Below, one piece after another: positions 5,546 through 38,990 of a stretch of 64,000 nucleotides of DNA. Numbering within the stretch: position 1 is the first letter of the stretch; every line of letters starts with the position of its first letter. The DNA is from Psammoneis japonica (lineage: Eukaryota). Below the pieces are notes generated by a model. That model saw nothing but the letters and a program-made list of their open reading frames with translations. It was not told where the DNA came from and searched no databases. The stretch is taken from contig QPGO01000292.1 in the NCBI GenBank assembly GCA_008632985.1, forward strand, positions 1 to 64,000, written 5' to 3'. The position numbers were made by a program, and so were the translations under genes.

Positions 5546-6485
5546 TTTTTCAGAAAATAAAACAGGGAGAACGAAAGTCTCCACTCAGTTTATGACATGA
5601 AGTAGCTTCCTGAAAGTGGCTAATCGTGCTGTAGTGGTATAAGGAAAACTGAAAGGCAGGTTAGCGCACAAGCAAAGACGAAGCTCTTTCTCGCTCGGCT
5701 GTCATCGCGAGTGTCAGTGTTTTGTTCTGCTCGCGGCTCGCGATCGCGGTGGTCGGTTGCGGTTCAACAGGTCGGCAGAAATCAATGTCATTCATCATTC
5801 ACGAAGCATTTTTAATGATACTTTTGTTCATTTATATCTCCGAACATAATATATTTTAAAGGTCACGTGGCTTCATCGCGTGTGACGCGACAGGAGTGAT
5901 CGAGGGCGTCCGCGCGCGGCGCGCGGCTGCATTCAAGAAAACTTTCGGCCGCGTTGCGCGTTGCCCTGTTGACCTGTTGCCACATTGCGCTGCACATTGT
6001 TGTTGTTGTTGTTGCGATCGAAGAATCACCACCGTCCTCTCCTAACGCAAACGAACAAACAGAATCAATGAGCCCAAGCAACCTTTGCGCCTTTTTAAAC
6101 CAAACGACTGTGTCCAATGAAAGTGCCGGAGAACAGCAAGAGAGCGAGACGTGCAAGAGCCTGTCTGTTGCTTGGATTTGCCAGAGAATTTGTGCAATCA
6201 ATTCAAGCATTTGTTCGATCGCATCATCGTCTTGCTCAAAGTCAGCATCCATGAACGGGAAGACATCCAGCAAGCAGCAGGAGAGCAGATCTCCGATCTC
6301 ATCACACAAGAAGTTGCCAAGGAACCGATTCTCGCAAAGAGCTGTTTACAAGGGGAGAAAAAAGATTGATTTTTGGAATTCGCAAAAATGCAAATGGATG
6401 GTCTTTGCTGACCGCGGTTTGCAAGAGCACTCATCGGAATCCCATTCTTCATGAGGCCGTCACACTTCTGATCAATGACGTGTTC

Positions 6486-6761
6486 TGACAGGATTTGAAC
6501 AGGATTTGGGTGCGCGCGAAGTGTCGCGCGCTGTTTAGTTTACCGCGCACAGTTTTGTGTGCTTTAGTTCCGCGCGTTCACGCGCGATGTAGTTTGCTTT
6601 CGAGCCACAAGGCTCACAAGGATGACAACAGCAGCCCGATTGTGCCGACTTGCACGTCTTTCGGCTCCTGCAACGGTCTCTGAGCGGAGACTCATCTGCC
6701 ATTTAGACAGCAGTGAGGAGTCATTGTTTGAATTCTTGCCATTTGCCTTCAATTTCTGTCA
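6486..6761 (+). repeat. 5' LTR of Copia element 1
   Basis: Direct repeat of 12075-12350 with TG...CA ends. Confidence 0.95.
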
Positions 6762-7702
6762 GATTGACAGTCTTGCTCATTGTCAACCCATTGAGCAACC
6801 GCCATCGTTGTTGTTGATTCACCAACGACGCCATTTCAATCCTGCGTGGACCTCCGCATGTGTTCTACATGCGTCGGCAAGTCTGCGCGCATTCAATGCC
6901 AGGGCATCGGCAGGAAGTTAACGTCACCGTCAAGTCTCCTTACCGCTGGACATCTGGATTGATCACACTGCCTTTGATCGCTGAAGACACATGTTCAATG
7001 GTCATGTCCAAGTCCATCCTTGATCAACATCCCTTGACACACCCATTCCTCGGTTAACGGTCAAGAACCCCACATGTTCAAGGATCTCAGTCGCTGAAGA
7101 CATGTGTGTGTGTGCATGTCTTCACGGCCAAGAACCTTTACCCACTCTTCGGACTGCGGTTTTGCCACCACTCTACAAGCACACCGAGTCCATTGCACCT
7201 GATCTGCCCCGGACTGCTGGTGCTCTGCAGTTCTGCCAGGTCCCACGAGGACGACTGTGAGAGCAAGCAGCCGTGATTGCAGCCTACGTTGGGGGCGAGG
7301 GTGCTTTCCTGCGTTTGTTCGTTCGTCCACAGCACCCAACGCCTGTGTCAACTGGCCAGCCTGATCGGGAAATCCAACCGACATAAAATGAGAACGGTTC
7401 AGGGGTCTTGTCCACCTCTAGTCAGCTTACCTGCAGGGGTTTACAACCCGCTACTCCGCTCGTAAGCAACCCAAAGCGCCACTGGCTGCGGGTTCAGACG
7501 TGCCGGCACAACTCTGCGGACCGGACAGGAAGTTTAGCACTTGACAACGAACGGGATAGCAAAGCCCGGCGACTTCTGATTTTAAGACAGTTCAAGATTT
7601 CAAGTCAAGTCCACCTCAAGTCAAGTCTGTTCTCACCCAAGTTTCGAGTCTACCTTCGCTTCCCAACCAGAATTGATTGTCCTGACACCACTTTTGTCTG
7701 CC

Positions 7703-10700
7703 ATGGTTCTCACTCGTCAGCAACAAACCGATGGTTTCGAGCACGTTGTTGGAACCGTGCTTGCCCAAGGTGCTGGGAGTCCTCTTCGTTTGGCTTTGGC
7801 CCAAGACGGCACGGACTCGCATCAGGAACTGTTCACGTTCATGCCGTCCCAAATCGACTCGCTTGAGTACGACAACGGCACTGATGTGATCCCTTTGCCC
7901 CGTGGTCATAAGAACATGTTAGCAGCACTAGTTAGTCTGTACATTGTCAAAGCACACAAAGGTCTTGACGTTGCCAACGACTCCTCTTTGTTCACGCATG
8001 ACGAGTTCCTTGCCCACCGCCTCAGCCCCGACTGCATGTCTTCTGTGTCCATTGGCAGCTCACCCCTTGCACCTCCGCATGTCACCAACCCGACCAAGGC
8101 ACGCGACCCGGTGCGGGACTTCAAGCGAGGCATCAAGCGTGATCCCACCGCTTTCACGGCTCTCAAATCCGACAAGCAGTGGCACACTTGGCACACCTCA
8201 CTTGTGGCACAAGCCCGTGCCCAAGACGTCGAGTGCATTCTAGACTCGTCGTACAAACCGACCAGCCCCGAAGACAAACTGCTCTTTGCTGAACAGCAAA
8301 AGTGCATGTTCGCCGTCTTCGAACGCATCCTTCTCACCGACAAGGGCAAGGCTCTCATTCGCGAAAATGTGGGGTCTTCTGACGCACAGACCATCCACCG
8401 CGCCTTGTCTGAGTGCGCGCTTGCCTCCACCCGTGCATCTGTCGAGTCCTCCACCCTGCTCACGTACCTCACCACCGCACGTCTTGGTGATGGCACTTGG
8501 AAAGGTCCGACCCACGGGTTCATCCTTCATTGGCAAGATCAGTTGCGCAAGTGCGAGGCACTCATCCCGGCCAGTGACCACTTCTCTGAAGGACAGAAGC
8601 GCGTCATGCTCGAGAATGCCGTGCACCCTGTCGAGGAACTCCGTGCTGTCAAGAACCAAGCTGATCAGCATCGTGCGCAGAGTGGCAAGAGCCTCACACA
8701 CGATCAATGCTGTGGCTTGCTCCTCTCCGCGGCAGCTCAGCACGACAGCACGTTTCAACCCAAGACGACACCTCGAGCTCCCCGACGCGCCACACACGCA
8801 CACGACGTCTGCTCCGAGGAACCGTCTGACGATGTGTTCTACGACATTGACAGCGACATTGACGTCCTTCAGGCCAATGCTGCCCACACCCGCGGTCCCA
8901 GCCTCACCGGTGACCAATGGAGACGTCTCCCTCCCGACCACCAACGGATCTGGGATTCGTTGCCCGATTCCTCCAAGGCGATCATCCTTGAGCATTCTCG
9001 TCCGCCTCCCCGCAACCCGCGAGCCAGTGACTGCCATGAGTCTGTTGCGGCCAACCTTCACGACCAACGCCTTGGGAGTGACGGTGATGTCAACTTGTCC
9101 AACACGACTCCTGCTGACTCTGGTGACTCCGCTCCAAATGTGGGTGCCAATTTGGACAATCCCATCATGGCGCACCTCACCAAGTGCAAGTCACTGCCAC
9201 CCGGTGATCTGCAACGTCTGTTGTCTCCTAACCAAGCCCCCAATGCTAGTCGACCGGGGCCATCCGCCGCTTCCTCTGCCCCGCCAGCTTCTGCAGATGA
9301 CATGGAACTCAACGGCCGCACTTGCCGCCGCGTCAACAACCACAATGTCATTTGCTCTGCCTCTGCTCATCGCTCCACACGCACTGGCGCTCTAGTCGAT
9401 TGTGGGGCCAACGGCGGCATTGCTGGCGACGACGTTCGCATCATTGCACGCACCTCTCACCAAGTCGACGTTCAGGGCATTGACGATCATCAATTGGTGG
9501 ACATCCCTGTTGTCACCGCTGGTGCCGTCATTGAGACCCAGCGTGGTCCCGTCATCGCCATCCTCCATCAGTGCGCACACACGGGCAAGGGCAAGACCAT
9601 CCATTCCTGCGGCCAGCTCGAATGGTGCAAACAGGATGTCAACGATCGCTCTGTCAAGGTGCCCAACGGCTTGCAACGCACCGCCACTCCTGATGGCCAT
9701 GTCATCCCCATTGACATCAAGGCCGGCCTGCCTTGTGTTGCCATGCGACCTTACACTGACGCCGAATGGGACACCCTGCCCCCACCTGAACCCATCATCA
9801 AATCTTGCCATGACGACAACCCCATCGATTCTCCTGATGGGGAGATCAGGACACCCAAGATGCCAGTTTTCGATCCGCAAGACATCATTGGACGCACCTT
9901 CCTCATGCAGCCACAAGAGGACGGACAACGCCACAGAGCTCGCATCGTCAAGGCCGTCGAAGACCACGAATGGAAAGTGAACGGCAATCCCGAGCTCACT
10001 GAGTTCGTCTGCTCTGTCAACAATGACGAATGCGAGGAAGTCCTTGCCTGCAATGACATCATGAATCACATTGAGCAAGAAGACGAAGACACTGCTGTTT
10101 GGAAATTTCGACGCATCGTGTCACACGAAGGACCTCTGAAGCCTCACGACCCAACCTGGAAAGGCTCAAGCTACAACATCATGCTTGAATGGGAAAGTGG
10201 GGAGATCACGTCCGAGCCTCTTGCCATCATCGCCAAGGACGACCCCGTCACCTGTGCCATCTACGCACGAGAGAACGGACTCCTCGACACGGATGGCTGG
10301 AAGCGGTTCCGCACCATCGCGAGGCACCAAAAGAAGCTGTTTCGCATGGCCAACCAAGCCAAGCTTCGCTCCTTCCGCACTGCACCTCGCTGCAAGCACG
10401 GATGCGAAGTTCCCCGGAACTGCAAACACGCCATGTCACCAGACGAACGCAACGGCAACCGCAAGTGGGGAGACGCAACTAATCTCGAGATGGACCAACT
10501 CACTCCTCCTGCGGGACACAAGAAGATCCGAGTGCACCTGGTGTGCGACGTGAAACACGACGGTTGCCACAAGGCATGACTCGCAGCCGATGGGCACCTC
10601 ACGGACGTACCCATCGATGGTGTCTGCTCCGGAGCAGTCTCCCTCCGTGGCCTTCGGCTGATGATTTTCCTGGCCGAACTCAACGAGTTGGAGACATGGG

Positions 10701-12030
10701 CCACCGACATTGGCAATGCCCACCTTGAAGCCACCAACAAGGAGAAGCTTTACATTGTAGCCGGACCTGAATTTGGCAAACTCGAAGGACACATCCTTGT
10801 CATCCACAAGGCACTGTGTGGACTGCGCAGCTCCGGTCTCTGCTGGCACGAGCGCTTCGCCGACTGCCTGCGAGCTGAAGGCTTCTTCCCCTGCCGCGCC
10901 GAACCCGACATTTGGATGCGCAGGAACGGCGACCACTGTGAACACATTGCCGTTTATGTGGATGACCTCGCCATTGCCATGAAGGACCCTCAATCTTTCG
11001 TCGACACTCTCACGGAAAAGCACAAGTTCAAGCTCAAGGGTGCGGGACCCATTGAGTTCCATCTGGGTTGCGACTTTTCCCGGGATCCCGACGGAACCTT
11101 GTGCCTGTCTCCGCGCAAGTACATCGAGCGCATGGTCGACAGCTGTGCCCGACTGTTTGGGGAGAAACCCACCACCAACGCCCTGTCACCTCTAGAGAAG
11201 GGTGACCACCCCGAACTGGACACTTCCGAACTGCTGGGACCCGATGGCATTCACAAGTTCCAGTCTCTTGTTGGTTCACTCCAATGGGCAGTGTCCCTTG
11301 GTCGAATTGACATTGCCACGGCCGTCATGTCACTCTCTACCTTCCGAGCTGCACCCCGTCAAGGCCACTTGGATTGTGCCAAATGCGTCTGTGGGTGCCT
11401 CTCCAAGATGCGACACGGTGCTCTCCGCGTTCGCACGGAAGAGCCCGACCATTCGGATCTCCCTGCTCCGGCCTGTGAATGGATGCATTCCGTGTGTGGC
11501 GAAGCAGAAGAGATGATCCCGAAGGACGCTCCACCGCCCCTTGGCAAGTTCGTCACTGCCACCCACTGCGTCGATGCAAACTTGTGCCATTGCATGCTCA
11601 CCGGACGCTCTGTCATGGGAATGCTCCACTTCCTCAACAAATTCCCGGCTGATTGGTTCTCTGAGAAGCAAGCCACCGTGGAGACTGCGACCCACGGGTC
11701 TGAATTTGTTGCCGCAAGGACTTGTGTTGAGCAGATCATCGACCTGCGCATCACCCTGTGCTGCCTTGGCGTCCCGATCCGCAATGTCAGTTGCATGTTC
11801 GGTGACAACAAGTCGGTTGTAGACAGTGCCACCATCCCGCACTCCAAGTTGCACAAGCGACACACCGCACTGTCGTTCCACCGTGTGCGCGAGGCAATTG
11901 CCTCTGGTTGCCTTGAGCTCCACTTCATCGAAGGCTCCCGCAACCCTGCTGACATTCTCAGCAAGCATTGGGGTTGCTCCCAAATCTGGGACCTTCTCCG
12001 CCCCCTCATGTTCTGGAACTTCATTCCATC
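7703..12030 (+). pseudogene. Copia gag-pol remnant (gag, protease, RT, RNase H); integrase core missing
   Basis: ORFs 7673-10579 and 10661-12181 lie in the same frame, separated by TGA at 10577-10579 (HKARL -> HKA*L). No HHCC or DDE motifs between the protease (~9.4 kb) and the region after ~9.8 kb. Confidence 0.85.
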
Positions 12031-12074
12031 CGAAGTCGAATCTGTTTCTGTGACTCCTCAAGCAAACTGGGGAG

Positions 12075-12350
12075 TGACAGGATTTGAACAGGATTTGGGT
12101 GCGCGCGAAGTGTCGCGCGCTGTTTGGTTTACCGCGCACAGTTTTGTGTGCTTTAGTTCCGCGCGTTCACGCGTGATGTAGTTTGCTTTTGAGCCACAAG
12201 GCTCACAAGGATGATAACAGCAGCCCGATCATGCCGACTTGCACGTCTTTCGGCTCCTGCAACGGTCTCTGAGCGGAGACTCATCTGCCATTTAGACAGC
12301 AGCAAGGAGTTGTTGTTTGAATTCTTGCCATTTGCCTTCAATTTCTGTCA
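12075..12350 (+). repeat. 3' LTR of Copia element 1
   Basis: Direct repeat of 6486-6761, followed by the target-site duplication TGTTC. Confidence 0.95.
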
Positions 12351-13779
12351 TGTTCCAGCTCCAGGTGGGACCTCGCAGTGCTGAACTGTGACATCAATGG
12401 TTTTTTGGATCGCGCCGCATGTCACGCACACAGATGGCTACGTGTGATGTTCTACAAAATTGTTTCATGCTTCCCATTTTGCGAAGCCAAAGGCTTTCCA
12501 TTTTCAACATTTGTGACAATGAAAGTGTGCTGGGTGTGTTCTTTGATGTCTGTAGAATGTGCCCATGCAAACCATTGTTCATGTGCCACAAGTGTGAAGG
12601 AGGAGATACGTTCGTAAAATTGCCTCTTTTTCTGTTGGCAATCATTTGTGTTTCAATTGATCAACAAATTTAACATGGAGCTTGCACGCAGAAGTCTGTG
12701 GGCCCAATGTCACACGGAGTCCCACCTGGGATTGGAACCCGTCCAATGTCAACCCGCATGCCTTGCTGTGGAAATGGGGCTGCAAATGCTTCCCTCTGGC
12801 ATGCATCACCTCGGAACATTGTGCTTTGATGCCCTGGATTGTGCGGAGCCATGCGTGGATTTTTGAGCACCCGACCATCATTCAAGACCACCACAAAATG
12901 CTTGAATGTGCCCTCATTCGATGCCATTGTGATGGAGATTGTGAGGCATCCGTTGTTCGTGGAGTCTTGGAGTTTCTGCCTGCAGCTCTAGACAAATGTT
13001 TCCCAGGCAGGTTGCAAGGCATTGTTTCAGGATGGGGAGAGTGCAACTTGGGCTTGGTGGAATGGATGGTTGAGAAGCATCCTGAATGCCTGAAACATCG
13101 TGACATGTGGGGACGGACTGCTTTGCACTGTGCGTGTGAGTCTCTTTCACCTGTTCACTGTGAAATGGATTTTGATCCATCATCAATGGAGAACAGGGCA
13201 AGCATTTGCCGCTTTGTCATGCAAGAGCATCCCGAGGCCATCCGCATCAAGGCACGATGAGGGGGCGGACTGCCACTTCATTGCCTGGCCCGCCAATGTA
13301 ACAGGAGACTGGTCCATGGCTCGTGATTGACATGTTGAAAGCACATCCCAAAGCTGCACACGTCAAGGCGTGCAACAATTGTCCAAAGTTGTCAAGTGTG
13401 CCTTTTGTCCAAGTGATCGGGCCACTCATGCAACAGCAGTCTCAGCTGAAACAAGAGGAAGAATCCCTTGAAGTTGGTAGAAGGCTCTTCAGGGGCTTTT
13501 CTGAGTCTGATGCGGGGGCTGGTGTTGTCCCCAAGAAAACCAGCAAAGCATTCTCCATGTGGGCAACAACTCATGTGGCTGCATTTCAGGATCAACGTGC
13601 TGCCCTTGAGGTGGAGATTGCAGGCATTCAAGAAGCTTTTGAAGGAGATGATGAGGAAAGTGACTTGGAAGGTGGAAGCGATGAAGACTCCTGCGCAGAC
13701 TCTGAAAGTGATGATGAGAGTCTGGGAGCCCAGGCCGACGCTGATGAAGATGATTTGGGTGAGGCGGATTAGGAAGCAA

Positions 13780-16700
13780 GGCCATTCTGAGCAACTGGCC
13801 CTGCGTTTGATGCCCGAGGTGTGGAGGTTGGGGCTGCGTCACTGTGGAGATGCATGCAAAGGCATTGCTGTGGGCATTTGTCACAATCTTGTCTCTTCAC
13901 CTTGAGAAATTGATGAGGAGCAAACTGTTGCAAATCAAATTGAGGCACAAATCAACAGTGCATGTCAGCGCACCGGGCTGGGCGCATTGCATTAGAATGT
14001 CAGCAACCCGGTGGATTGCAGGGCCCCACTTTGCACATTGGACGATTTGATGACTTGCTCATTGCCTGTGCAATTGTGTCTGCATGGGCTTTTGTGTCTT
14101 GACCAAGCTTCCAGAGTGCAAGGCAGGATTCATCACCTTGCAGCCACTGCCAGTGCAACCTCAAGTGCGGCATCTTTCTGTCAGCCATGTGCAGCTGGGT
14201 TTCAGTTTTTTCTTGACAGCAGCCACAAAAAGTGATGGCACTTGCTTTTGGACACAACAATGATTGGCCGTGCTTGCCACATTTTTTTTTCACAGGAACA
14301 ATGTTGTGATGACAACCAGTGGTGATTTTTACAAATGACAATGCCAACAACACAACATGCAACCCAAGCAGCATGATCCAGCAGAGGTGTCAGAGGGCAG
14401 GTGCTTTGGAAATCAGCAAAAGTGTCAGCAGCAGGTTGCTCTGGAAAAGAAAGAGACAATCTTTTTCACCCAGATGAAACACTTGCTTCATTTGAACACT
14501 GCACAAGTTCAAGGTGCCACTGTGACAATTTGGAGATCTTTCTGGGATGAGCAAATTCTGCTGGACAAGAAGTTGTTGTCACTGCCAGAAATGTCCTCAT
14601 GGAGAGGACTTCCTGCCTCTGTGTCAGAGTTGGTGCATTTGGCAGGGTCACACACACACAATGATGAAAACATCAGACAAAAAAGCCTGCAGGCAGGTGC
14701 ATCTGTGGGGGCACAACTTGTTTCTCCACCTCTGATGACTCACAAGCTGTTGTCTCTGATGCTCTCTTCAGCTCTCTGACAAGATCAGTGGTTTGCTTGA
14801 TGCTTGGTGCACTGTCAAAAAACTTCCAGGCATCCTCTCCCAGATGGAGTCTGCTGGCATGTGGCATGTGGTCAAGAAGATCTTGAAGCAGATGGCAGAG
14901 CACCAGAGCAAGCAGCTGCAGCTGGTGTGTGAGTGTTTGCCAAAAACCCACCTTGATGCCTGTTTCTGTTTGTGCCAAGTGCGCCAGTGTGTTGTCAAAT
15001 CACAAAATCAGCACAAGCCAAGTGCTGGCACCACACTTCATTCCTGCACTGCACATTTCCTGAGTGCAACACCTTGCATCTTGTGCCTCCATTCCACAAA
15101 CATGCTGTGTTGAGCAGGATGTGCTGAGAATGAGTCACATGGGTGTTGGAGTCACTTTGGCCTTCTTGTGCACACTGGGATGCCAGCAATGAAAAGAAGA
15201 GACCTTTGTTGCAGCAGTGCTGTTGCTCTTCTTTCTGCAGCAAAGTTCAAACAAATGACCCAGATTTCATCTGAGTCAAAGTTCACCCTCAAGCCAATCT
15301 GCCAAATTTTCAAAGCTTCTGCTTTGTGAATGAGCCAAGTGTGCAATGCGCCACATGAGGGCACCTGGTTGTTCACTAAAAAGAGAGAAGACCATCAGGT
15401 TCTTGGAGAAATGAAAAGTCAGAAAAGCAAGAAGCATGGGTGGGGGCTGTTGGACAAAAAAATCACAACCACACACCCAGCTGCTCTCTCAAAACAAGCC
15501 CATTGCAGCGGGGCTGGGACTTCTTCAGAGTTGCATCATTCTCCATTTTATGCTGATCAGCTTCTCTCAGATTGCTGCAGCACAGGATGAAGAAGAAACA
15601 AACAGAGACTGGCACAACATGAACACAAACACAGCATGCCACAACCTTCCAAAACAATTTTGCACACTCACAAAAAACTCACACCTCATGGCCAAGACAG
15701 CTCTGCCCAAAGAAATGCTGATGTTGCTGTGCTCTTGTCAAAAAAACAAACTTGTGAACAAAACATCTTTTCTTGAGTGTCAGACCAGTGCACCACTTCT
15801 TGTGTCAACCAGCAAAGTTTCAGTGTTGTTCTCCTTCTTTCTTCTTCAAGTTGACCATTGTTCTGGATCAAGTCCCACCCGCACTCAACACACTCTTCAA
15901 AAGAATGAAAACTTGGCAAGCACAAGGCACCAGAAAAACACAACCATGGCAAAGGAAACAGCCACTGAACAAGTGCACTTTTGGATGAAACTGATCTGGA
16001 CTGTGTTGGCACTTTTTGCTGTTTCAACCATTTTCTTTTTTCACAGGTTGTGGCTTGCAGCCCATTGCAACAAAACCCAGCTTCACATTTGTGGAGTGGC
16101 CAGAGCTCAATCAGGATGTTAAAAAAGCATTTTCAATTGCTGACTCCCAGACAGTGTGTTGGTGGTGTGTGGCGTGCAAGAGGAAATGGGAAAACTGCTG
16201 CAATTTTGAGTGCTTTGAAGGGATGGTGCAGAATGATCTCTGTGGGGCTTTCTAAAAAGGGGCACAATGAAGTGCAACATGAGTTTGTCAAAAAGTTGTC
16301 AGGCAGGATCAGTTTTCATTCTTTGCTGCAAAGCCAGATGGAGATTTTGACACAGATTTGTTTGCCGCCTGTCCTGTGTGACCCAGCCATTGTTGTGTCA
16401 ATGAAAGTCCACACTGCTGCAGAAGAGGTTTTGGAGGGATTGCTTGTGATGTGAAAAATTCTGCCGTGCAATTGGCTCAAACAAGATGAGGGTCAACAAG
16501 CAAGGCTTGTTGTGGATCTGTCCAGTTTGTGAGCAGCCACTTCCTCTGGGACAGACCTCACCAAAGTGTGTGTTGCTGAAGCTCACATTGGACCATTCTC
16601 ACAACCAGAGGAAACACTTTGCACTAACCAAAGAATGCCAAAAAGTTTCAAAGATCTTTGATGTTGATTAGAATCCACCACAAAATTGATTGTTGAGAAA

Positions 16701-17640
16701 TTTGTCCCCAGTGTGCTCACACTGCAGAAGGGCAGAAGGTGTGCTGCACTCTTCTTCAAGACAGGAGGCCTCTTTTTTGATGCTGATGTTGTGAAGGAGA
16801 TCATTGAGGAGATTCCAGGCAAACAGAAAAAAACATTGCTTGGGATGAATGAGACTTCATTCTTTTCTGTGACTTTGGTCAAGACATCTTCCACGACTTT
16901 TTCCACAGTTGTGGCTGGTTCTCCAACTCACATGCAGCTGCACATTGTGGAGCAATCAAGCAAGTTGGAGCCATGATGCTGCTGCTTCTCACTGCATGGC
17001 ACAAAGGAGCTGGCAGGCTTGTTCCTTTTCAGCCCTGCACAAAGCACACAAAAACTCCATGTGCTGGCCCAACCACCAAAGCATTGTCACAGCAGGCACA
17101 ACTTGCATGTGTGGTGCTTTGCCATCTCCAACACCACAAACACCAAACAAGACAACAACAGCATCTCAACCACTTCTTTTGTTCTCTGCAAAGTCTCTGC
17201 CATTTGGCATGTTGGTGTTGTCATTTGTGTGAGTTGCTCTTGCTCTTGCATTTTTTTTTGTGTGGCACAGGTGGCACTGGCATGTTGGCAGAGTGACTCC
17301 AAGACCTCCCTGTGATGTTCTTGGCTGTGCTCAGCTGAGAATGTTGATGCTTGTTGTGCTCAGCAGATTTGTTTTGCTCAACCAAGAATGGCTTGTTCAG
17401 CAACATGCATTTTTGTCCCCGGCTGCTCACCTGTGCATTTCTGATCAGCAAAGAATGATGTCACCTCTTGTTGTGTGCTCACTCAGTGGTTTCTTGTCAA
17501 TGCAACAGAATGAAGAAACTCCAAGCACACACTCCAAAAACGTGAAAAGCAAGGCCCCACCACAGCCAAAAACTCTGCGTGATTTCAGCAGCACTGAGCT
17601 GCTTGTGTCAAAACCCGATGACAGCAGTGCCGTGCATGAT
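13780..17640. other. Heavily degenerated DNA nearly devoid of both TpA and CpG (TG/CA-rich); original element not identifiable
   Basis: By eye, only a handful of TA and few CG dinucleotides in about 3.9 kb. ORFs are Cys/His/Gln-rich and nearly Tyr-free. Confidence 0.75.
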
Positions 17641-17659
17641 GAGCGGCCTTCGTTGCTGA

Positions 17660-17995
17660 CAGTGTGGTGACGAAACCACCTGGGGCCACGTGGGTCATGG
17701 AGAAGCTGGCAGCGGGATTGCCAGTTGCACAGTTGGAAAGCCTGGCATCACCAAGGGCGGTCAGACAGTGATCACATCCGATGTGCACCGGATGCGACCT
17801 CGGGCTTTTGTGTTCACCGACACAAATTGCACCCATGGACAGATGGATGGGGTGCCATGGGCCCGATGGAAATTTGCATGATCTTGGAACAAGCAGGCGA
17901 AATGGTGGATTACGGCAGTGTGGGTGACGACGCCGGACCCAAGAAGACATTCCCAGGAAAGCCGCACGTCACATGTGACAACCACTTTGACGGTT
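17660..17995 (+). mobile_element. piggyBac-like transposase fragment (frameshifted)
   Basis: CGDETTWG (D at 17669), KPGITKGGQ, RPRAF/HRHKLH and KPHVTCDNHF (17977-17988). These resemble the piggyBac DE and T.DNYF catalytic motifs, with Y->H. Confidence 0.6.
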
Positions 17996-19246
17996 TTTGG
18001 GCAACCTTGCTGAGTGGAGTCATGAGTGTTTTGGTGAGTGCATCCGCCGTCAAGTTTCTTCCCATTGCGGCCGAATGGGTTCCAGGCTTTACTCTTGGCA
18101 TGGGTCTTGTGGGCGTTGGATTCTCGCGGATTCTTCTTTCTCTCCAGGGGCCAACAAACAGAGCGCAGATTGTGGTGCGCGGCACGTGGTACGTGCGCAC
18201 GCAGGATCAGATTTTTTTTTTCTTGCGGGCATGATGGCGGCGCGGTTGACCCACAGGCTCAAGTTCAAGAAATGGGCTGGTGTGAAGGGCCGCCACGTGA
18301 ATCCCATTTTGCGAACATGGGTTGGCCTGCGCGTCTTTTTGCTGTCTTTTCTACGTGTGTTTTAGCAATGAAATTACGTGCAATCTGAGAATTTTGTTTC
18401 TCCCTCCGACACGGAAGCGAGAGCCTGTTTCTTTGCCATGACGCGACTGTGCCGGCATCTGAGTCGTCTGAAGAATGTGATGATTTCAAAGAACATGATG
18501 TCACTGTGAATGGCAACTCTAGATGCAATGTCACCAATTGCAATGGAAGTTTAAAAAATCAATGCCGCTGCAATCGCAATTGCCACAAACAGATTGTTTC
18601 ATTCTGCAGCGGCATCCACCTTGTCGCAGGGCTTCACGGTAGATTGTGCAATGTGAGCATCAACAGATTCAATGAGGGAATCACACAAACCACAAGCCAT
18701 CAAGTCCATCCGGAATGGTTCAATTTGAATGTGGGCTTGAGATTCGGGAGTGTCGGGATCAGATTCAAGTTTCACTGAACGGCAGCACCTTTCATTTTTG
18801 TTGGACTTTCTGCGAAATTCAACCAAGCCCTTGGATCCAGATCCCTTCTGGATTGAATCCGGTGCATCACTTTCGGCTGTTCCGACTGGAATGCCGCTAA
18901 CCTGGAGCACACGGTGAACGTCTGATGCGTTTGGCCAATTCCCATCAAAGCTTGCCAAGACGTGTGCTGTCAAAAGAATGAGAGCATTGTCAACTCTCTT
19001 TTTAACAGGACAACAACTTTTTTCCTTTCCTGCATTGCTGCTCTTTTCTTGCTGGATGCCATGCCCACAGTGCAAGAACGACGTTGACGGTTGATGATGT
19101 TGGTGTGAGAAAAATGGAAATTCAAATGACAAGTGCTGAATCACGCAGAGATGTGCCGTACGTGCCTTGTCATCGCTCGCAAGATCGCTCAACGCTTGGT
19201 ACGTGGTGCGGCCATGGCGAAAAAGAGACGGCATTTTCACAACAAA

Positions 19247-19340
19247 GGAAGGTGGGGCATCGGTCGCCGACGGCATGTTCGAGCCTTTAGAGCATCGAAA
19301 GGGACCAATGCAATTGTCGGCGACCGATGCCCCACCTTCC
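19247..19340. repeat. Perfect 25-bp inverted repeat with a 44-bp spacer
   Basis: GGAAGGTGGGGCATCGGTCGCCGAC (19247-19271) and its exact reverse complement (19316-19340). Confidence 0.9.
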
Positions 19341-19685
19341 ATTGTGCTCAAAAATCGCGACGGCGTGACGGCGCCATTTTGCCGTGCTTTGTCGCGGTGA
19401 AAAAGGCATGAGAGGTCACGAAAATCCACAATCTGACGGACAGATGACGGACCAAATGTTCGCCAAAAAGGTCACAAATCGGCACATATAAAATTATCTT
19501 AAATGATGGTTGTCAAACATTTGTCCGTTGAGGCGACATGCCAGCCCATTTGTTGAAGTTGAGCCTGTGGTTGACCGGACACACAGAATTGGAAGAGAAG
19601 ACCGCTAAGAGAGTAGAAACACACACACAAGAAACAAGGCTTCACATCACAGTGTATTTTGCTGGGGTCGCAGCGATACGGCAGC

Positions 19686-20660
19686 ATGTTGCTCAAGTTG
19701 ACAACTTTCCTGCTGACCCTTCTCTGCTGCTCAGTGGCGCCGGTGGAAGCAGCTGGCAACAATGATTGCCAGAACATTGACCAGAAATGTCCAGGTTGCT
19801 TTGGCTGCGCACTCTGGTGTCATGAAGTTGCCCATAAAGGCGGCACAGGCTATGAGAAGAAGTTGGTCTTGGTTGAACGAGCCACGGACTACTGCCTTGC
19901 GTCCAATTTTCCGAATGATGGCTGTGCCACAGGCCATTTTCCATTCTTCAGTTGTGAGAACGTCCAGCCCATTTCGGCAACATTCCATTCGTTCATTCCC
20001 GGTGAACTTGAGGTCTTGCGCTCTCCTGAGAGCATCTTCGAGGCCATTGACTCATTGAATGGCAACTTTGACGCGACGTTTGGCAGGCAAGAAAATGTCG
20101 CATCCTTGCAGGAACGTGTCGCCCTGCGCAACTTCACCGAACAAGCCTTCGAGAATGCACTCCTCGATGAAACGATGAGTCCAACCGTCTCGAACAAGCT
20201 CCACGAAGATTTTAGGCTCGATGTAAGTGCTTCCAAGTTGGCAGAGTTGACATCTGCAGAGAGCATCCGTCGCATGTATGATGCTTTCCAGGCATGTGAA
20301 GCTGTCCCAATTGCCAGCATCATTCTCCGTCGCAATTGCATGGAAGGCAACACACACATTGAGTGTCATCATGATGGAAGCATGGCCGTCATGCATGTCT
20401 GGCTGAACGACGATGGTTTAGAAGGAGGCAACCTGATTTGCCTCAATGGTGACGGATCCACCACCGTCGACACAGAGCCTGGCTCTGCTGTGTTTCACGG
20501 ATGGGACCTTGTCCATGGGGTGAACAGTTTCAACGGCACTGGGTGCATCCCAATGTTTGGAGGACAGAAGAACTGGCAGCAAGACATCTTCGCTGACATT
20601 CTTAACTTGGATTCGTCGGAAGACGCAAATGCCGACGGTTCTGTCAATGCTGAACTGTGA
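19686..20660 (+). CDS. Signal-peptide protein with a C-terminal 2OG-Fe(II) oxygenase-like domain; TpA-depleted, possibly inactivated
   Basis: Hydrophobic N-terminus MLLKLTTFLLTLLCCSVAPVEA. HxD (CHHDG), LND...EGGNL and distal HGV motifs. The usual GTRY-like motif reads GTGC. Confidence 0.6.
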   Translation: MLLKLTTFLLTLLCCSVAPVEAAGNNDCQNIDQKCPGCFGCALWCHEVAHKGGTGYEKKLVLVERATDYCLASNFPNDGCATGHFPFFSCENVQPISATFHSFIPGELEVLRSPESIFEAIDSLNGNFDATFGRQENVASLQERVALRNFTEQAFENALLDETMSPTVSNKLHEDFRLDVSASKLAELTSAESIRRMYDAFQACEAVPIASIILRRNCMEGNTHIECHHDGSMAVMHVWLNDDGLEGGNLICLNGDGSTTVDTEPGSAVFHGWDLVHGVNSFNGTGCIPMFGGQKNWQQDIFADILNLDSSEDANADGSVNAEL

Positions 20661-21013
20661 TTTTGATGGAACACCATGCGATGCACCAATTGGGACACCC
20701 CACTTTTTTGTTCAGCTTCATCATTTTCAGTTCTTCATTTCCTTGGCATTGTGTTTAGTCCAATCACATCTTACATCGACGCCCTGCGGCATCCGTCCAA
20801 CGTCTTGGACGTTTCAATGCGCTTTTCACAGATTTTAATGCGACACAATGAACTGTCCCGCACATTGGTCCCTTCCTTTGGAGTGCCTTGCTTTTGGTGG
20901 TTGCAAGTCGGAATTGGGATTGAGGAGGCCAGCGGGTCACTTTCAATCATCTTTTGCTGCAGTGAGGGACCAGGGACCGCGATTCTGGTGCTGGCTTGAG
21001 TGCATTCAGACAG

Positions 21014-22002
21014 TTGGATAAATGCTGTGTGATGATGCTGTGCACAACACATGCCCAAATGTGTGTGCGGAGAAGGGACTCAACAATTGGCCGAGTGGCA
21101 ATTTCTTTGCCTCTTGAGTTGTTGAGAACCTCCCGCACTCGTTGGGCAGGGTGCAGCATTCTGAGTGGTTATGAGTCTTTGCGCTTCCTGAGGTCGCTGG
21201 TTCGAGTCGGCCTCAAATCCAAGCCTCCTTTTCTTTCTCGGCCTGCCCCTTTTCTGCCCCATCCGGGGTGGGCGGTTGGGCTTCGAACCCACTCCTCCCT
21301 TGGCATTGGCCGGATGCGCCACATGGCGCTAACCCATCCGCCTGCCTGACAGAGGGAGTGCATGGTCAAATTCGTAAGTCCGCCGTGCGGATGCGCCACA
21401 TGGCGACAACCCATCCTGCGACGAGAGGGAGAGTTGGATAAATGCTGTGTGATGATGCTGTGCACAACACATGCCTAAATGTGTGTGCGGAGAAGGGACT
21501 CAACAATTAGCCGAGTGGTAATTTCTTTGCCTCTTGGGTTGTTGAGAACCTCCCGCACTCGTTAGGTAGTGTACAGTGTTCTGAGTGGTTATGAGTCTTT
21601 ACGCTTCCTGAGGTCGCTGGTTCGAGTCGGCCTCAAATCCAAGCCTCCTTTTCTTTCTCGGCCTGCCCCTTTTCTACCCCATCCGGGGTGGGCGGTTGGG
21701 CTTTGAACCCACTCCTCCCTTGGTGTTGGCCGGATGCGCCACATGGCGCTAACCCATCCGCCTGCCTGACAGAGGGAGTGCATGGTCAAATTCGTAAGTC
21801 TGCCGTGCGGATGCGCCACATGGCGACAACCCATCCTGCGACGAGAGGGAGAGTTGGATAAATGCTGTGTGATGATGCTGTGCACAACACATGCCTAAAT
21901 GTGTGTGCGGAGAAGGGACTCAACAATTGGCCGAGTGGCAATTTCTTTGCCTCTTGGGTTGTTGAGAACCTCCCGCACTCGTCAGGCAGTGCACAGCATT
22001 CT
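21014..22002 (+). mobile_element. Tandem TRIM-like array (LTR-internal-LTR-internal-LTR, 420-bp period)
   Basis: 149-bp repeats at 21014-21162, 21434-21582 and 21854-22002. The internal 271 bp starts with GGTTATGAG (tRNA-Met-type primer site) and ends with the purine tract GAGAGGGAGAG. GACAG flanks both ends (21009-21013, 22003-22007). Confidence 0.8.
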
Positions 22003-22007
22003 GACAG

Positions 22008-25000
22008 TGTCAGATGCGGGGTCGCTGTTCGAATGTCACAGGATCAAAGGCACGCAAGTGCTCACCGAGTTTGTCGCGTGCCACCCGTCACACGCACTGA
22101 GCACTCGTCTCAAGGCCTGCTGGGAGAGCCCAGAAGTAGCTGAACGGTCTGATGCGATGGACGAATCAGCCTTCTTTGACACCCACGAGGAACTGGAACC
22201 TCTCGACGACCAGAAGCATTTCTTTGACGCTCTTGAGGACTTCATCCCGGATTTCTTCCGGTTTGACGAGCTCTGTCTGCCGCATCATGTCGTGGACACT
22301 GCCCATTTTCAAGATCCTGTGGAGCTGTTGGAGGAAGCAAGTGTTGGACCAGTCGTCCACAACACCTCCACCATCCAACTGCTCACCGGACAATCACAAG
22401 CCGACCTCCTTGCATCCGATCCGCAGGCACTCATCGGTCTGTCGGACGAGGCTCTCACGGTCGTCATGGATGCTGGTGCCACGCCAGCTGTTGCCCCCGA
22501 CAAAGATGATTTTACGGGGCCTGTGACTGCTCCCAAGAAACCCTTGCAGATCAATGGGATTGCCAACGGTCTTGCCATCCAGGGTGCCGGTCCGGTTGCG
22601 TGGGTGTTCACAATGCCGAGTGGGGCTACCACCCAACTGAACACCATGGCATGCCACGTCCCTGGAGCCCGTCAGCGCCTGCTGTCGCCTCAACGCCTCT
22701 TCAACGAAGAGAAGGGGGCACGTGGGAAGTGTGAGGGCGATGAAACCACTTTCCGTTTACACATTGACGGGATGGGCAAGTTGGCCGTGCCATGTCATCC
22801 ATCAAGCCACTTGCCTGTTGCGTCGATGACCAAGGGCGTGTCTGCCGCTCCTCAAGTGAACCTTCAGATCCTCAACGAGGAGAATCAAAACCTCACGGCA
22901 GGCCAAAAGCTTCTTCTCGAAATGCACGCCCGTTTTGGCCATTTGAACTTTGGTCGCGTCCAAGCACTTCTCCGCGCAGTTCCGTTCCTTTCGAACCATT
23001 TCAAGTCCGCAGCGAAGTGTGACCACCCAAGATGCGAGGCACGCAAATGTGCTAAAGGTCATGGACGCTCTCTTGGATCTACTCACAAGTCGACAGTCCC
23101 TGAACGCGACGGGGCCCTTCGAGCTGACCATCTTCGACCGGGTCAGGCTGTCAGCGTTGATCATTTTGAGTCGCGCCTTTTGGGCCGCACCTTCGACTCT
23201 TATGGCAAAGCCACGTCCAAGCAATTCAAGGGCGGTTGCATCTTTGTCGACCACGCCTCTGGCTATGTCCAGGTCGAGCACCAACTGGGTTTCTCCGCTG
23301 TTGAGACGATGCGCGCGAAGCAAGCGTTTGAGAAACATGCTTTGGACCACAGGGTCATCGTCCAAGATTTTCTTGCCGATGGTGGCGCTTTCAAGGCCAA
23401 CGCTTTTGTACAACACACACGAGAACATGAACAACGTCTCCGTTTTTGTGGAACCAATGCCCATCATCAGAACGGCGTCGCAGAGCGGGGTGTCCGCAGC
23501 ATCTCCAACATGGCGAGAGCGATGTTGCTTCATGCATCAATCCACTGGAAGGGGGGAATTGACAGCTCCCTGTGGCCCATGGCAGTTTCTTGTGCCACGC
23601 ACATCTACAATGTCACCCCAAATTCCAAAGGACATTGCCCAGCGGACATTTTCACTGGTTCGACAGTGCCAAGACATCGGTTGCGCGACATTCACACATG
23701 GGGATGTCCAGCGTACGTGCTTGACCCGACCCTCGCTTCCGGGAAGAAGCTCCCGCGTTGGGAGCCTCGCACTCGTCGCGCTTTGTTCGTGGGACTCAGT
23801 GCCATCCATTCCAGCGAGGTTCCTTTGGTCCTCAATCTTCAAACTGGAAGTGTTGCACCTCAGTGTCATGTGGTCTTTGACGATCTCTTTACTGCCGCAC
23901 CATCAATTGAGAGGGAGACGGATCCACCTGATCACTGGGAACACTTGTGCCTCAACCAATCGACATGCATCCCTCTGGAGAAGGATCAGGCAGTTCATTC
24001 ACACGATGAGTGGCTCACCCCTCCAGAGCGTCAACGTAAAGAACGAGAACTAGCCAGAGCAACACGCATTCGCGGGCATTTTGAGCCTGCTCCATCGATT
24101 GCTGTGCCGGATTCACCCACTTCTCGCGACGACGTCACCGATCGAGTCGCACCTGCGACTCAGCAGCCAACGCCACCAGTCCCACCTGCGACTCAAACTC
24201 CTACAGACTCTACGGACTCTACGCCAATTCAGCCACCTGAACCTCAAGATGGTAACGGACTTCCGCCACCCGAAGCACCAACGGAACCAACAGCTCCTCC
24301 CCCAGTCGAGACACCTCCCATGACGAATCCAGAGGGAGTGCCAGGGCTGCGACGGTCTTCACGGTCAACCAAGGGACAGTTCAACTCTGCCAAGTTTGTA
24401 GATGAGGTCTGCTTCAGCTCCGTCGAGGAAATGCCGCTGCCGATCAGACACGAGGCTCAACTGGCGTATCTGGCGACTCTCGAGACGGATTTGGACAGTG
24501 GTGCCATCAATGTCGGCGATCCACGAGCCCACGCAGCTAGCAAGAAAACCAAGGACCCTGACACGCCTTCGTTGCACAATGCTCTGAAAGGTCCGGACGC
24601 CGACGAATGGATTGAGGCGATGAAAATTGAAGTCAACGCACTCATGCATCGTCGAGCCTGGAAAGCAGTCGAGCGTCAGCCGCACATGAATGTACTTCCA
24701 GGCACATGGGCACTAAAGCTCAAGAGACTCCCAGATGGAACCCCTCTCAAGCACAAGGCCCGATGCTGCGTCCGCGGTGATTTGCAGAAAGAAGGAGTCG
24801 ACCACTTCGAAACCCACGCGCCGGTTGTGCAATGGTCCAGTGTCCGACTCATGCTCACTGCGGCATTAAAGGAGGGATGGACTGCACGACAGGTGGACTG
24901 TGCCACAGCCTTTTGCCAAGCTGATGTCGCCGAGGAAGTCCATGTAACACCGCCGAAGGGATTTGCACCAAGGTCGGGACTCAACATGGTTCTCAAACTT

Positions 25001-26250
25001 TTGAAAGGACCACACGGCCTAAAACAGTCTCCCAAGGGCTTCTACGAGAAGTTGCGAGCTGGTTTAACCGAGCGCGGATGGGTGCCTTCAGCCACAGATC
25101 CCTGTTTGTATTTCAAAGAGGGCATGATGTGTGTGGTGCACGTCGACGACACCGTTTTTGCTGGAGCTTCAGCTGAAGCTCTAGAAGCCGAAATTTGCAA
25201 GTTAGGAGTCTCCGACGACGAACATCGCCACGCACTTGAACTTAGAGACGAAGGAGAAGTCGGTGACTTTCTCGGCATCAAGATCGAAAAGCTCTCCGAG
25301 GGTCGATTTCTACTCACTCAACCCGGTCTAATTGACAAGGTCCTACGTGCCGCACAGATGCAGGATTGCAATGGAGCATCTACTCCAGCTCTGCCTGCGG
25401 CCATTGGTGCTGACACGGACGGGCTACCTTTTGATGAACCCTGCGATTATCGCTCAGTTGTTGGAATGTTGATGCACTTGGCAGCGAACAGCCGGCCAGA
25501 CATTGCACATGCCACACATCAAGTGGCTCGATTCTCGTTTGCGCCCCGAGCGTCCCACGCTGCTGCAGTGAAGCGGATGCTCCGATGCCTCAAAGCAACT
25601 GCTGCTGAAGGTCTCATTCTCAAGCCTGCGCAAGATCATCGAGTTGATTGTTGCGTCGATTCTGACTTTGCGGGGTCATTTGGTGTGGAAGATGGTCAAG
25701 ACCCAGTTTCTGTCAAGTCCAGGACTGGATGCCTTGTCTACTGCGCCGGCTGCCCGCTGATCTGGGTGTCCAAGCTGCAGACTCTTGTGGCATTGTCGAC
25801 TGTGGAAGCGGAACATGTCGCACTTTCTCAAGCCATGCGCGATCTCATCCCCATTCGTGAAGTTCTCAAGGAGCTCAACCACCACGCATTCGGAAAGTCT
25901 GACCGCCAAAACCCCATCACGACCCACTCCAAGGCTTTTGAGCTCGCAACCCAAGGCACCGATGACTCGCCTGTAGAGCAGAATGTCCCACCTACGTCCG
26001 TTGTGTACGAAGATAACTCCGCGTGCCTCAAGTTCGCACGTGTGCCCAAGTTGTCTCCGCGAACCAAACACATCGGTGTCCCGCACCACTGGTTTGGGAC
26101 TAAAGTCGAACAATTGGAGATCGACATCCAACCTATCAGCACTCTAGAGCAACTAGCCGATCAGTTCACGAAGGGACTACGGACCGATGCGTTCCGTACG
26201 GCTAGAAAGGCTCTTATGGGCTGGTAAGCTCTCTCGGTTGAGAGGGAGAG
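22008..26250 (+). mobile_element. Second Ty1/Copia (CoDi-like) retrotransposon: pol (protease, integrase, RT, RNase H); gag and 5' LTR not found
   Basis: Open frame to 26227 with VMDAGAT (protease), HARFGH (zinc finger), VSVDHF/LADGG/NGVAER (integrase), VHVDDT (RT) and VDSDFAG/EDN/LADQFTK (RNase H). Purine tract GAGAGGGAGAG at 26240-26250; a putative 3' LTR follows. Confidence 0.9.
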
Positions 26251-37419: not shown

Positions 37420-38990
37420 GACGAACTAGCCGCTTTCGACGAGACAAAGCGTCAATGGCATTCAAGTATCCCCAGTTTTCATGAGCTCATAATCGACTGG
37501 AGAGGGGTACCAAAACTTCCTCATACCCGTCACTGTCGTCGAGGCGAAGCTAACTATTGTATGTGCTTGTTTCAAGAACAAAAACAATAATGGACAGTCG
37601 CCAGGGCATGAACGAATATCAGTGGCGTATTTAAGAACCAACAAAGAAAAGCTACAAAGTTGTTGTCTAGTTTAAACCTACAAGTTACTAAAGAGAAAGG
37701 AAATATTGTTGTGCCTACTACCTAAAAAGCCGTGAACTGGAAGATTGTTAAGTAGGGGTCTTTTGCCCCGGGGTTTTGGTTGAGAGTTTTTTTTTCCGTT
37801 CTGTGGGCCTGAGCCAGGGCAGCTGTGCCCGAGGAGGGGGATGCCGTACTACTAAGCTCGCCTTTTACACCACTTAGCAGGGTCTTATACCCTTTCTCAC
37901 CTCAGATGCTATTCACTCCTTTTCTTAGTTTGGCCTCTTTTCAATTTTTTCGCTCAATAATACCACACGGTATAGACTTTGGTGGATAACAAGTGTCACT
38001 AGCCGATCCACCCCTGTCCTGCGGGAAGGCGTATCCACAGTAATACTGACAGAGTCCCGGTTCTAGTGCCTTGTTTCCTTTTTAATGTCTCAGAACGCTC
38101 TCGTCACCAAGGACTGTTTTGTACTGGAGGAAGAACCCGGTCCACATCATACGCAATCACAAAAATGAACGCAACTACACCCAAGCCGAATCCAGCGTAA
38201 TCCAACCATTCACCACAATCATCCGTCGTCATGAAATTCCAATAGTAAGTATTGAAGGAAAGAACAGCATCATGGACACTGAGACGCTCCTTCTCAACAT
38301 ACGAATGAAAACAATCAATCACACGGATGATGTGTGGTGCTCCACAATCGGGGTGTCAAACCATCGACAAGAAACCTCAATCTCATGTCGTGGAGAATCT
38401 GAGCATCGAATATGGACTCTAAACAAACGCCACGCAGAGTCCAAACACGAGATACAGTTCCTCTACGACACGAGACTGAGAACACTACTCCTTCGAGTCG
38501 ACGGCGATCATGGTAGCGGCAGGCATCACGCAGGCGTTGTCTGACTTGAGTATAGAAAAGTCCATGGTTGAGAAAGCATACAATACAAACCGCGGCCTTC
38601 GTTCTTACCCCAAAAACAACCCTGACAATTCTCTGTTTCGATGAATTGTGACCAATGAGTGATGTTCCGATCAGCCCATCACGCTCCTCGGCATACCAGG
38701 AATGCGTAGATTCTACACGAAATTCCGAAACACGACTCATTTAACGATTGTTAGGATCAGGTTTTGCGAGTGCAATGAAGGTGTTGGCTCAACTGATAAG
38801 GTTTTCAAACGGTCATTTTTCAGCTACCCTTCTCTTCCCTTGTACCGTCGTCAACAACCGCCGTCACGGTTTCTCACGGTCTCCACGGTGCTCTTGCGGC
38901 GCACAGCGTGGGCCGGCTAATAGACTGTTGTCGGAGGGAAGTTTCGCAAGTTGAAGTTCGCATGCGATCTTTCGCGCGCGTTTATTATTT
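37420..38990. repeat. Copy 1 of a ~1.5-kb direct duplication
   Basis: Matches ~41920-43520. Near-identical at 37750-38720, with more diverged flanks. Includes a 72-aa minus-strand ORF at 38104-38322. Confidence 0.9.

Follow-up and report, generated by a model that had tools for sequence, protein, structure and literature searches.

Hypermutation of TpA to TpG and CpA has been described in mutation-accumulation lines of the chlorarachniophyte Bigelowiella natans, where it strikes integrated viral DNA (Mettrop et al., bioRxiv 10.64898/2026.01.13.699255). According to the available part of that preprint, the mutation rate in two integrated viral regions is about 6e-7 per site per generation, roughly 1000 times background; 210 of the 211 changes in the region derived from a nucleocytoplasmic large DNA virus (NCLDV), and all 20 in the virophage region, are A→G or T→C, and these changes all fall on TpA. 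The same source reports 124 clusters in the B. natans genome that are poor in TpA and rich in CpA and TpG, finds reverse transcriptase and DDE domains enriched among low-TpA genes, and proposes an ADAT2-like DNA adenine deaminase as the agent. Its available text names neither diatoms nor stramenopiles, and a literature search found no published diatom report of a TpA→TpG/CpA signature. Such a signature is described here in 64,000 nucleotides of the diatom Psammoneis japonica (assembly GCA_008632985.1, contig QPGO01000292.1, positions 1 to 64,000; hereafter the window), which carries two Ty1/Copia retrotransposons (Copia1 and Copia2), an Ngaro/DIRS-like element and several unclassified element blocks. 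These elements have very probably undergone a TpA-specific, strand-symmetric A:T→G:C process that acts on DNA after insertion, is confined to elements and runs beside CpG decay. An earlier note, made from the sequence of the window alone, had offered the pattern as undescribed, a claim that the B. natans preprint overtakes. In kind, the signature matches that of B. natans, and the diatom adds a second and distantly related lineage, in which the footprint goes much deeper.

Observed/expected ratios (O/E) of TpA, CpG and TG/CA were computed per kb, per block and at 200-bp resolution along the window. Per kb, TpA O/E is 0.00–0.36 over 6–26, 43.5–49, 51–52 and 61–64 kb, and 0.39–0.76 elsewhere. 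Taken by block, it is 0.18 in the Copia1 block (6486–12350), 0.05 at 12351–18000, 0.17 at 18001–21000, 0.27 at 21001–26250, 0.04 at 43450–49300, 0.05 at 50900–52250 and 0.12 at 61050–64000, so that the seven transposon blocks span 0.04–0.27 against 0.61 in host DNA. In counts, 204 TA steps are left over 29.9 kb of blocks, against 1353 over 32.4 kb of host DNA. The earlier note's statement that TpA is nearly absent from the repeat blocks and normal in the flanking host genes is thus borne out, and the start that it gave, position 5862, agrees with the measured left edge (5857|6043). Block edges are sharp to about 200 bp, the others lying at 43343|43684, ~49248, 50931–51001, 52335 and 61001–61144.

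The loss of TA is compensated within the pyrimidine-purine (YpR) steps. The four YpR steps together are constant, at 0.240 of dinucleotides in host DNA and 0.238–0.259 across the blocks, while TA falls from 0.042 in the host to 0.002–0.013 and TG+CA rises from 0.142 to 0.164–0.224. Three old blocks, at 12.4–18, 43.5–49.3 and 50.9–52.3 kb, have also lost CpG (O/E 0.23–0.26; CG frequency ~0.015, from 0.056 in the host), and in these the combined loss of TA and CG, 0.079–0.080, is balanced by a TG+CA gain of 0.077–0.082. The remaining twelve dinucleotides, AA/TT and AT included, stay at host-like ratios in the blocks, so that the change is neither a general drift from AT to GC nor an effect on WA motifs (W being A or T). 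Summed over the blocks, TG and CA number 2900 and 2891, indicating that both strands are affected alike. The Copia and Ngaro/DIRS-like blocks are not CpG-depleted (CpG O/E 0.84–0.92). Expressed as −ln of the fraction remaining, with host O/E taken as the start, losses in the four younger blocks are 0.8–1.6 for TA and 0.07–0.18 for CG, against 2.5–2.7 and 1.3–1.5, respectively, in the old blocks. On this rough inference, TpA loss in the four younger blocks, at an early stage, is about 5–23 times further advanced than that of CpG.

Two further properties of the blocks follow from their composition or bear on the specificity of the process. The TAs that survive are scarce in ATAT, ATAC and ATAG (0.07–0.22 of the host share) and relatively frequent in TTAA and CTAA (2.8–2.9), a neighbour bias that hints at a wider recognition context. 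Special patchiness of the survivors was not seen, their dispersion being 1.74 in blocks and 1.49 in the host; an analysis of tetranucleotide gains was set aside since base composition confounds it. Secondly, TAA and TAG together drop from 17.7 per 1000 trinucleotides in the host to 4.1 in the blocks, while TGA is the same in both. Because TAA and TAG are erased, dead elements accumulate long open frames in either orientation (for instance at 7600–12200 and 61300–64000): open runs of at least 100 amino acids number 38 per 10 kb in the blocks against 23 in the host, on both strands.

The timing of the changes can be read from Copia1, a complete long terminal repeat (LTR) retrotransposon on the forward strand (6486–12350) with LTRs at 6486–6761 and 12075–12350, TG..CA termini, a 5-bp target duplication (TGTTC) and a reverse-transcriptase open reading frame at 10661–12181 (forward strand; RVT_2). 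The RVT_2 domain in both Copia1 and Copia2, together with the LTRs and the TGTTC duplication of Copia1, identifies the two as Ty1/Copia. Since the two LTRs were identical at integration, their differences arose after insertion. There are ten, all transitions within YpR steps: one TA/TG, one TA/CA, two CG/TG and three adjacent TG/CA doublets. They affect 10 of 144 YpR positions and none of the 132 others (p=0.002); most TA sites of the pair have changed while no non-YpR site has, which roughly suggests that the excess is 100-fold or more. Copia1 is itself inserted in a TpA-depleted flank that belongs to an element of no assigned class (5858–6485; TpA O/E 0.08, CpG 1.10; last dense TA at 5857, next at 6043).

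Other repeats within elements give the same result. When the Copia1 LTRs are pooled with three other element repeat pairs, 37 YpR transitions stand against 3 other changes, with 2 transversions in 40, one pair sharing a unit with another so that the pairs are not fully independent. Upstream of Copia2 lie 420-bp tandem units (21009–22004, forward strand), the middle one of which retains TAs lost from units 1 and 3: it has the TA at 8/8 and 5/5 of the TA-type differences. A 207-bp direct repeat pair lies at the edge of the Ngaro/DIRS-like element (60644–61247; outer copy 60644–60850, inner copy 61041–61247). Five of its six differences are of TA type, and at all five the outer copy has TA and the inner copy TG or CA.

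The effect on proteins was followed at Tyr columns, defined as those where at least 80% of aligned homologues have Tyr, and compared with other conserved columns by Fisher tests. The Copia2 polyprotein frame is open over 1442 amino acids (21899–26227, forward strand; RVT_2 E=6e-35). Its conserved columns, taken from pairwise BLASTP, include 21 Tyr columns, which read Y4 H8 C6 F2 W1, whereas 419 of 465 other conserved columns are intact (p=4e-13), and its polymerase motif YVDD has become HVDD. Overall the frame contains 0.69% Tyr, 4.7% His and 2.5% Cys; its homologues have 2.2–3.9% Tyr in 120 of the 120 listed, at 40–64% identity. Conserved residues are replaced at 63 columns, 48 of which are explained by one-step codon paths: 16 TpA→TpG, 13 TpA→CpA, 1 of CpG type, 5 other A:T→G:C, 0 other G:C→A:T and 13 transversions. 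A:T→G:C paths therefore number 34 against a single G:C→A:T (the CpG-type one), and with 29 of the 48 paths at TpA this polarised spectrum is TpA-specific rather than a general AT→GC bias. Strand-coordinated runs of His or Cys along Copia2 were not seen (6 runs by hand count, ~7.9 expected). The Copia1 reverse-transcriptase frame, with columns from 150 library representatives, behaves similarly: its five Tyr columns read Y1 H2 C2 while 72 of 74 other conserved columns are intact (p=5e-5), and at a threshold of at least 60% its eleven Tyr columns read Y2 H3 C4 F2, against 145 of 158 others.

The third case is the putative Ngaro/DIRS-like element at the end of the window, whose block has a TpA O/E of 0.12. 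It comprises, on the reverse strand, a recombinase-like open reading frame of ~380 amino acids with 745 homologues (61350–62540) and a putative reverse-transcriptase fragment that runs off the window end (63372–63998; RVT_1 E=0.006, below the curated cut-off). No Pfam domain was found in the ~380-residue family, whose conserved pattern, R..RPGEY..GRWxS..Y, I take to be that of a tyrosine recombinase. With columns drawn from 120 of the 745 homologues, the three Tyr columns read Y1 C1 H1 and 136 of 153 other conserved columns are intact (p=0.04). His has replaced Y363, which 118 of 119 homologues keep as Tyr. Cys has replaced Y196, and PGEY has become PGEC. Changes of CpG type have hit invariant Arg residues of the same frame, R192 (120/120) becoming Cys through CGC→TGC and R89 becoming His. 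Metagenome relatives (80 loci, kept from 555 confirmed) have a TpA O/E of 0.38–0.87 at 44–63% G+C, compared with 0.12 at 61% G+C for the window copy. A sequence from another public dataset, P0242, is 67% identical to the recombinase-like frame and contains 0.5% Tyr. At five Tyr columns it reads HCHYC where the window copy reads FYCHH, and the disparity of the two patterns indicates that P0242 was hit independently; judged from this one sequence, it is probable that one further organism or population, at the least, is subject to the TpA process.

Conversion of Tyr to His or Cys had been claimed in the earlier note for four elements of three classes. It stands for Copia1, Copia2 and the recombinase-like frame of the Ngaro/DIRS-like element; the fourth element, called piggyBac-like, has no Pfam support. 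Among the motifs cited there, DIGNAHLEA, KALCGL, ATHGSEF, PGEC and RHLH do lie on Tyr-conserved columns, while HCVDANLCH falls below the thresholds. His and Cys at these places are not a trait of intact relatives, given the normal Tyr content of the Copia2 homologues and the TpA O/E of 0.38–0.87 in the relatives of the recombinase.

Reads of one public sample from one study (runs X1–X3) were built into contigs. Word depth and exact matches suggest that X1–X3 are accurate short reads. At a word depth of ~28–38 in single-copy parts, the X1 contigs show no difference from the window over 432, 384, 1381, 555 and 376 nt, and the exactly matched stretches include 15442–16822 (1381 nt), where TpA O/E is 0.03–0.05. 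The TA-free sequence is thereby reproduced and is not a basecalling artefact. Summed read depth is 67,000–134,000 for Copia1 (about 2000 depth equivalents), 3,400–7,000 for Copia2 and 37–100 for single-copy parts, which makes both Copia elements members of large families; the most depleted block (13–17.6 kb) is near single-copy depth at a likeness of at least 90%. Among the variant places in X1, 322 of 388 are transitions. The 17 variant rows listed for Copia1 comprise four CA→TG doublets (8 rows), 3 TA sites, 4 of CpG type and 2 others. At 10440, 10545 and 11496, which read CA or TG in the window, other Copia1 copies have TA; 10397–98 is CA in the window, and by the counts 17 contigs would have TG there and 7 TA. 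The Copia families evolve under TpA pressure and also decay in place.

A process that would yield these observations can be outlined as follows. In elements that have inserted, the A:T pair of TpA would be converted to G:C, producing TpG when the change falls on one strand and CpA when it falls on the other; other dinucleotides would be spared, and the process would halt at the element edge. Methylated CpG would decay to TpG/CpA more slowly in the same DNA, which would explain why old elements lose both TA and CG. Tyr codons, catalytic ones included, would be destroyed, and codons for Ile, Thr and similar residues would be altered where they follow a T. Conversion of TpA to TpG or CpA is unable to create stops, so that dead elements would keep long open frames. 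The agent would be an enzyme guided by silent chromatin. As to chemistry, it seems most likely that the adenine 3' of T is deaminated and that the resulting hypoxanthine is read as G, although I would put this somewhat short of an even chance. The natural substrate of tRNA adenine deaminases is A34, the base next to the universal U33 on its 3' side.

The same footprint would be left if a TET/JBP-type dioxygenase oxidised the T of TpA in silenced elements to 5-hydroxymethyluracil (5hmU) or 5-formyluracil, mispairing of which with G would yield T→C: oxidised thymines miscode with G, and because TpA is self-complementary, T→C and A→G at TpA are indistinguishable in sequence. A source available in part describes 5hmU as marking and silencing transposons in dinoflagellates and refers to older work in which TA and TC steps were preferred (PMC11572971). 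A genome-wide 5hmU map of Breviolum, again as far as the available text goes, shows no sequence preference (PMC11071213), and in the window TpC is not depleted (TC O/E 0.93–1.14 in blocks, 1.16 in the host). Thymine oxidation is unlikely on this evidence.

A dedicated enzyme might also be dispensed with, if silent chromatin lacked a repair pathway or if Pol eta-like error-prone patches were laid down after deamination of 5-methylcytosine. The affected DNA does show CpG decay, and diatom elements are CpG-methylated through DNMT5a, according to the part of the source that was available (PMC9998398). The window itself offers less encouragement. ApA/TpT is not depleted, at 1.07–1.44 in blocks and 1.14–1.15 in the host; transversions make up 2 of 40 changes in the element repeat pairs, and none of the 132 non-YpR LTR sites has changed. 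Pol eta favours A→G at WA, and its candidacy, raised in the earlier note, fits poorly with unchanged ApA/TpT. Moreover, TpA loss leads CpG loss 5–23-fold in the four young blocks and so does not arise as a side effect of repair at CpG. An origin without a dedicated enzyme is quite unlikely.

Whatever the chemistry, the trigger could resemble that of repeat-induced point mutation (RIP), duplication being sensed by homology, and the high copy number of Copia1 and Copia2 by summed depth is what such a trigger would predict. The window contains an internal control in the form of a 1.39-kb direct duplication of host-side DNA (37440–38792 and 41977–43346, forward strand), the copies of which are 89% identical and ~3 kb apart. 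Its 107 substitutions include 47 transversions and 9 changes of TA type, and TpA O/E is 0.68 and 0.70 in the two copies. YpR transitions number 19 against 88 other changes, a spectrum that differs from that of the element pairs with p=3e-17; as a test of a duplication trigger this comparison depends on the age of the duplication and its identity at origin. The untouched duplication speaks against repetition alone as the trigger, and so does the most depleted block, with its near single-copy depth. In addition, element edges are spared rather than overrun, as at the 3' end of Copia2 and in the outer 207-bp repeat, and units of one tandem array differ in damage. A RIP-like trigger is improbable in the light of these results, and repeat targeting, as the earlier note had it, is not shown: the duplicated host DNA has normal TpA and an ordinary spectrum. 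I infer instead that targeting follows transposon or silenced DNA, not repetition as such.

The remaining explanations fare worse. If a modified base in the repeats had been miscalled in sequencing or assembly, TA might have been written as TG or CA; the blocks are repeats, in which modified bases are to be expected, and X1–X3 may come from the assembled sample. Yet contigs built independently at a word depth of ~30 reproduce the TA-free sequence exactly, copies differ stably in having TA, TG or CA at one site, the Copia1 LTRs differ from each other, P0242 from another dataset has its own His/Cys pattern, and TA+CG losses balance TG+CA gains, all of which makes an artefact very improbable. An intrinsically TpA-poor composition of these families, due for example to selection against UpA in RNA, would agree with the mild under-representation of TpA everywhere (0.61 in the host) and with the same TG or CA being shared by many copies. 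It is just as hard to credit, considering the TpA O/E of 0.38–0.87 and normal Tyr content of relatives, the replacement of near-invariant Tyr residues (YVDD to HVDD; the recombinase Tyr found in 118 of 119) and the divergence of the LTRs at TA after insertion. Least credible of all is editing of element transcripts by an ADAR-like enzyme, fixed by reverse transcription: ADARs do prefer U 5' of the edited A (Mettrop et al., available part), but sense-strand editing predicts Tyr→Cys alone where Copia2 has His 8 and Cys 6, and CpA 13 against TpG 16, and it would leave neither differing LTRs within one insertion nor non-coding flanks and unclassified blocks that are equally hit. Divergence after integration, the near equality of His and Cys and the damage to non-coding flanks rule out that sense RNA was edited before it was reverse-transcribed, and they place the process on chromosomal DNA, as the earlier note had supposed.

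Several points weigh against a TpA-specific process acting on the elements where they lie. X1–X3 are possibly the assembly's own source sample, and their library type is not on record; the site-by-site detail from the reads rests on 40 of 400 variant rows listed. One product dominates some sites, such as 8015–16, where TG makes up ~93% of the depth, which indicates that some of the TA loss came down from source copies that had themselves been mutated and was not acquired in this copy. Doublets of TG versus CA may also come from CpG. The script that assigned one-step paths in Copia2 takes the TpA route first when several are possible, and the pattern used to scan metagenomes for recombinase relatives contained intact PGEY, which biases the scan toward unmutated relatives. 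Finally, TA islets of ~200 bp and the spared element edges are not accounted for. Islets of normal TA density lie inside Copia1 at 7401–7600 and 7801–8000 and upstream of the Copia2 frame at 21401–21600; they may owe their TAs to local protection or to gene conversion by copies with less damage. As for edges, 9 TAs are retained over the final 130–250 bp of the Copia2 frame (26101–26225). A 3' LTR of Copia2 was not found within the window, and since the frame ends at 26227 and is followed by host-like DNA, this copy appears to be 3'-truncated.

The other blocks could not be assigned to a class by their domains: none of the 70 open frames in the unclassified blocks matched Pfam above cut-offs. 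The first, at 12351–18000, is made up of one or more old elements depleted in both TpA (0.05) and CpG (0.25), with TG/CA at 1.8. A piggyBac label for the region around 18 kb is not supported: DDE_Tnp_1_7 was not detected, there is no Pfam match at E≤5 for 17233–17667 or 17671–18231, and the DNHF motif at 17977–17988 is the sole trace of that class. Inside the next block, an open frame of 347 amino acids (19617–20657, forward strand; TpA O/E 0.16) belongs to no known family and has no Pfam match. The X1 and X2 reads contain a second copy of it, 6–9% different over the parts aligned, in which the TGs of the window at 19712 and 19726 are TA, and the frame could represent a gene, captured or duplicated, on which the process has acted. 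Two more blocks depleted in TpA and CpG lie at 43347–49250 (TpA 0.04, CpG 0.26; edges 43343|43684 and ~49248) and, shorter, at 50931–52335 (TpA 0.05, CpG 0.23). The second copy of the 1.39-kb duplication stops at 43346, exactly at the start of the former, TA-free block.

Among the neighbouring host genes, one with four HMG boxes (354–2081, forward strand; HMG_box E=1e-43) has an ordinary composition and borders the region upstream of the first block. The 1.39-kb duplication brackets genes for an alpha/beta hydrolase (39101–40153) and an amine oxidase (40166–41740). The latter has 120 listed homologues at 49–62% identity, and every organism-named one is from a diatom, the genera being Nitzschia, Seminavis, Cylindrotheca, Pseudo-nitzschia, Fragilaria, Epithemia, Attheya and Amphora.

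The occurrence of the signature in a second lineage turns a single-organism result into a comparative problem, in which the gene responsible could be sought through genomes with and without the signature. It is conceivable, though I advance it tentatively, that diatoms and chlorarachniophytes share an old, chromatin-guided enzyme of genome defence, either a natural DNA adenine deaminase specific for 5'-TA or a thymine oxidase that leaves an identical footprint. A shared enzyme would then inactivate transposons and viruses once they have integrated, at a rate hundreds of times above background and with no stop codon ever created, and the two lineages, together with diatoms that have or lack the footprint, would allow a search for its gene by presence/absence profiling. 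No natural DNA adenine deaminase specific for TpA is known to me; the adenine base editors of the laboratory are evolved forms of a tRNA enzyme, and a natural counterpart specific for TpA would be of practical interest. For annotation, the consequences may include spurious proteins, and in such genomes gene counts may be inflated and transposon content underestimated. Profile searches are blinded in the hit elements, RVT_2 alone having been found above cut-offs, and dating by the divergence of LTRs would give false ages if it included YpR sites.

Compared with known systems, the diatom process shares with fungal RIP a heritable point-mutation damage that is limited to mobile or repeated DNA and contrasts sharply with the genes. 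RIP changes C to T, mostly at CpA, and so makes TpA and stops; the diatom process destroys TpA and removes TAA and TAG. Unlike RIP, it has not hit the 1.39-kb duplicated host segment. Diatoms do have RID-related DNMT4 genes, the role of which is not known according to the available part of the source (PMC9998398). Decay like that of methylated CpG in silenced transposons is visible in the same DNA, with conversion of CpG to TpG/CpA and a matching gain in the three old blocks and, to judge by codons, apparently at invariant Arg residues. Such decay leaves TpA alone, whereas TpA loss is far ahead in the younger blocks. The earlier note had set the pattern apart from both RIP and CpG decay, and this separation holds. 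With APOBEC3, which acts on cDNA, and ADAR, which acts on double-stranded RNA, the process has in common base editing directed against mobile or viral nucleic acid with a preference for a neighbouring base; those enzymes work on single-stranded cDNA or on RNA, before integration and with a bias to one strand, while here both strands are affected, after integration. Dinoflagellate 5hmU resembles it as a transposon-directed base modification in another lineage of the SAR group, but is an epigenetic mark not reported as mutagenic, and to our knowledge no thymine modification is known in diatoms.

The likeness is closest to B. natans: in both, the changes are almost only A:T→G:C, are restricted to TpA, which yields TpG and CpA, and are confined to mobile or foreign DNA. 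The hosts differ, a chlorarachniophyte there and a diatom here, and so do the targets, which are integrated giant-virus and virophage DNA in B. natans and LTR and Ngaro/DIRS-like retroelements in the diatom. The B. natans evidence consists of de novo events in culture, the diatom evidence of the accumulated footprint alone. CpG decay alongside the TpA loss is a feature of the diatom blocks. Lastly, the extent differs: a TpA O/E of 0.45 is given for the B. natans viral region in the available part of the preprint, while the diatom blocks, at 0.04–0.27, are near saturation.

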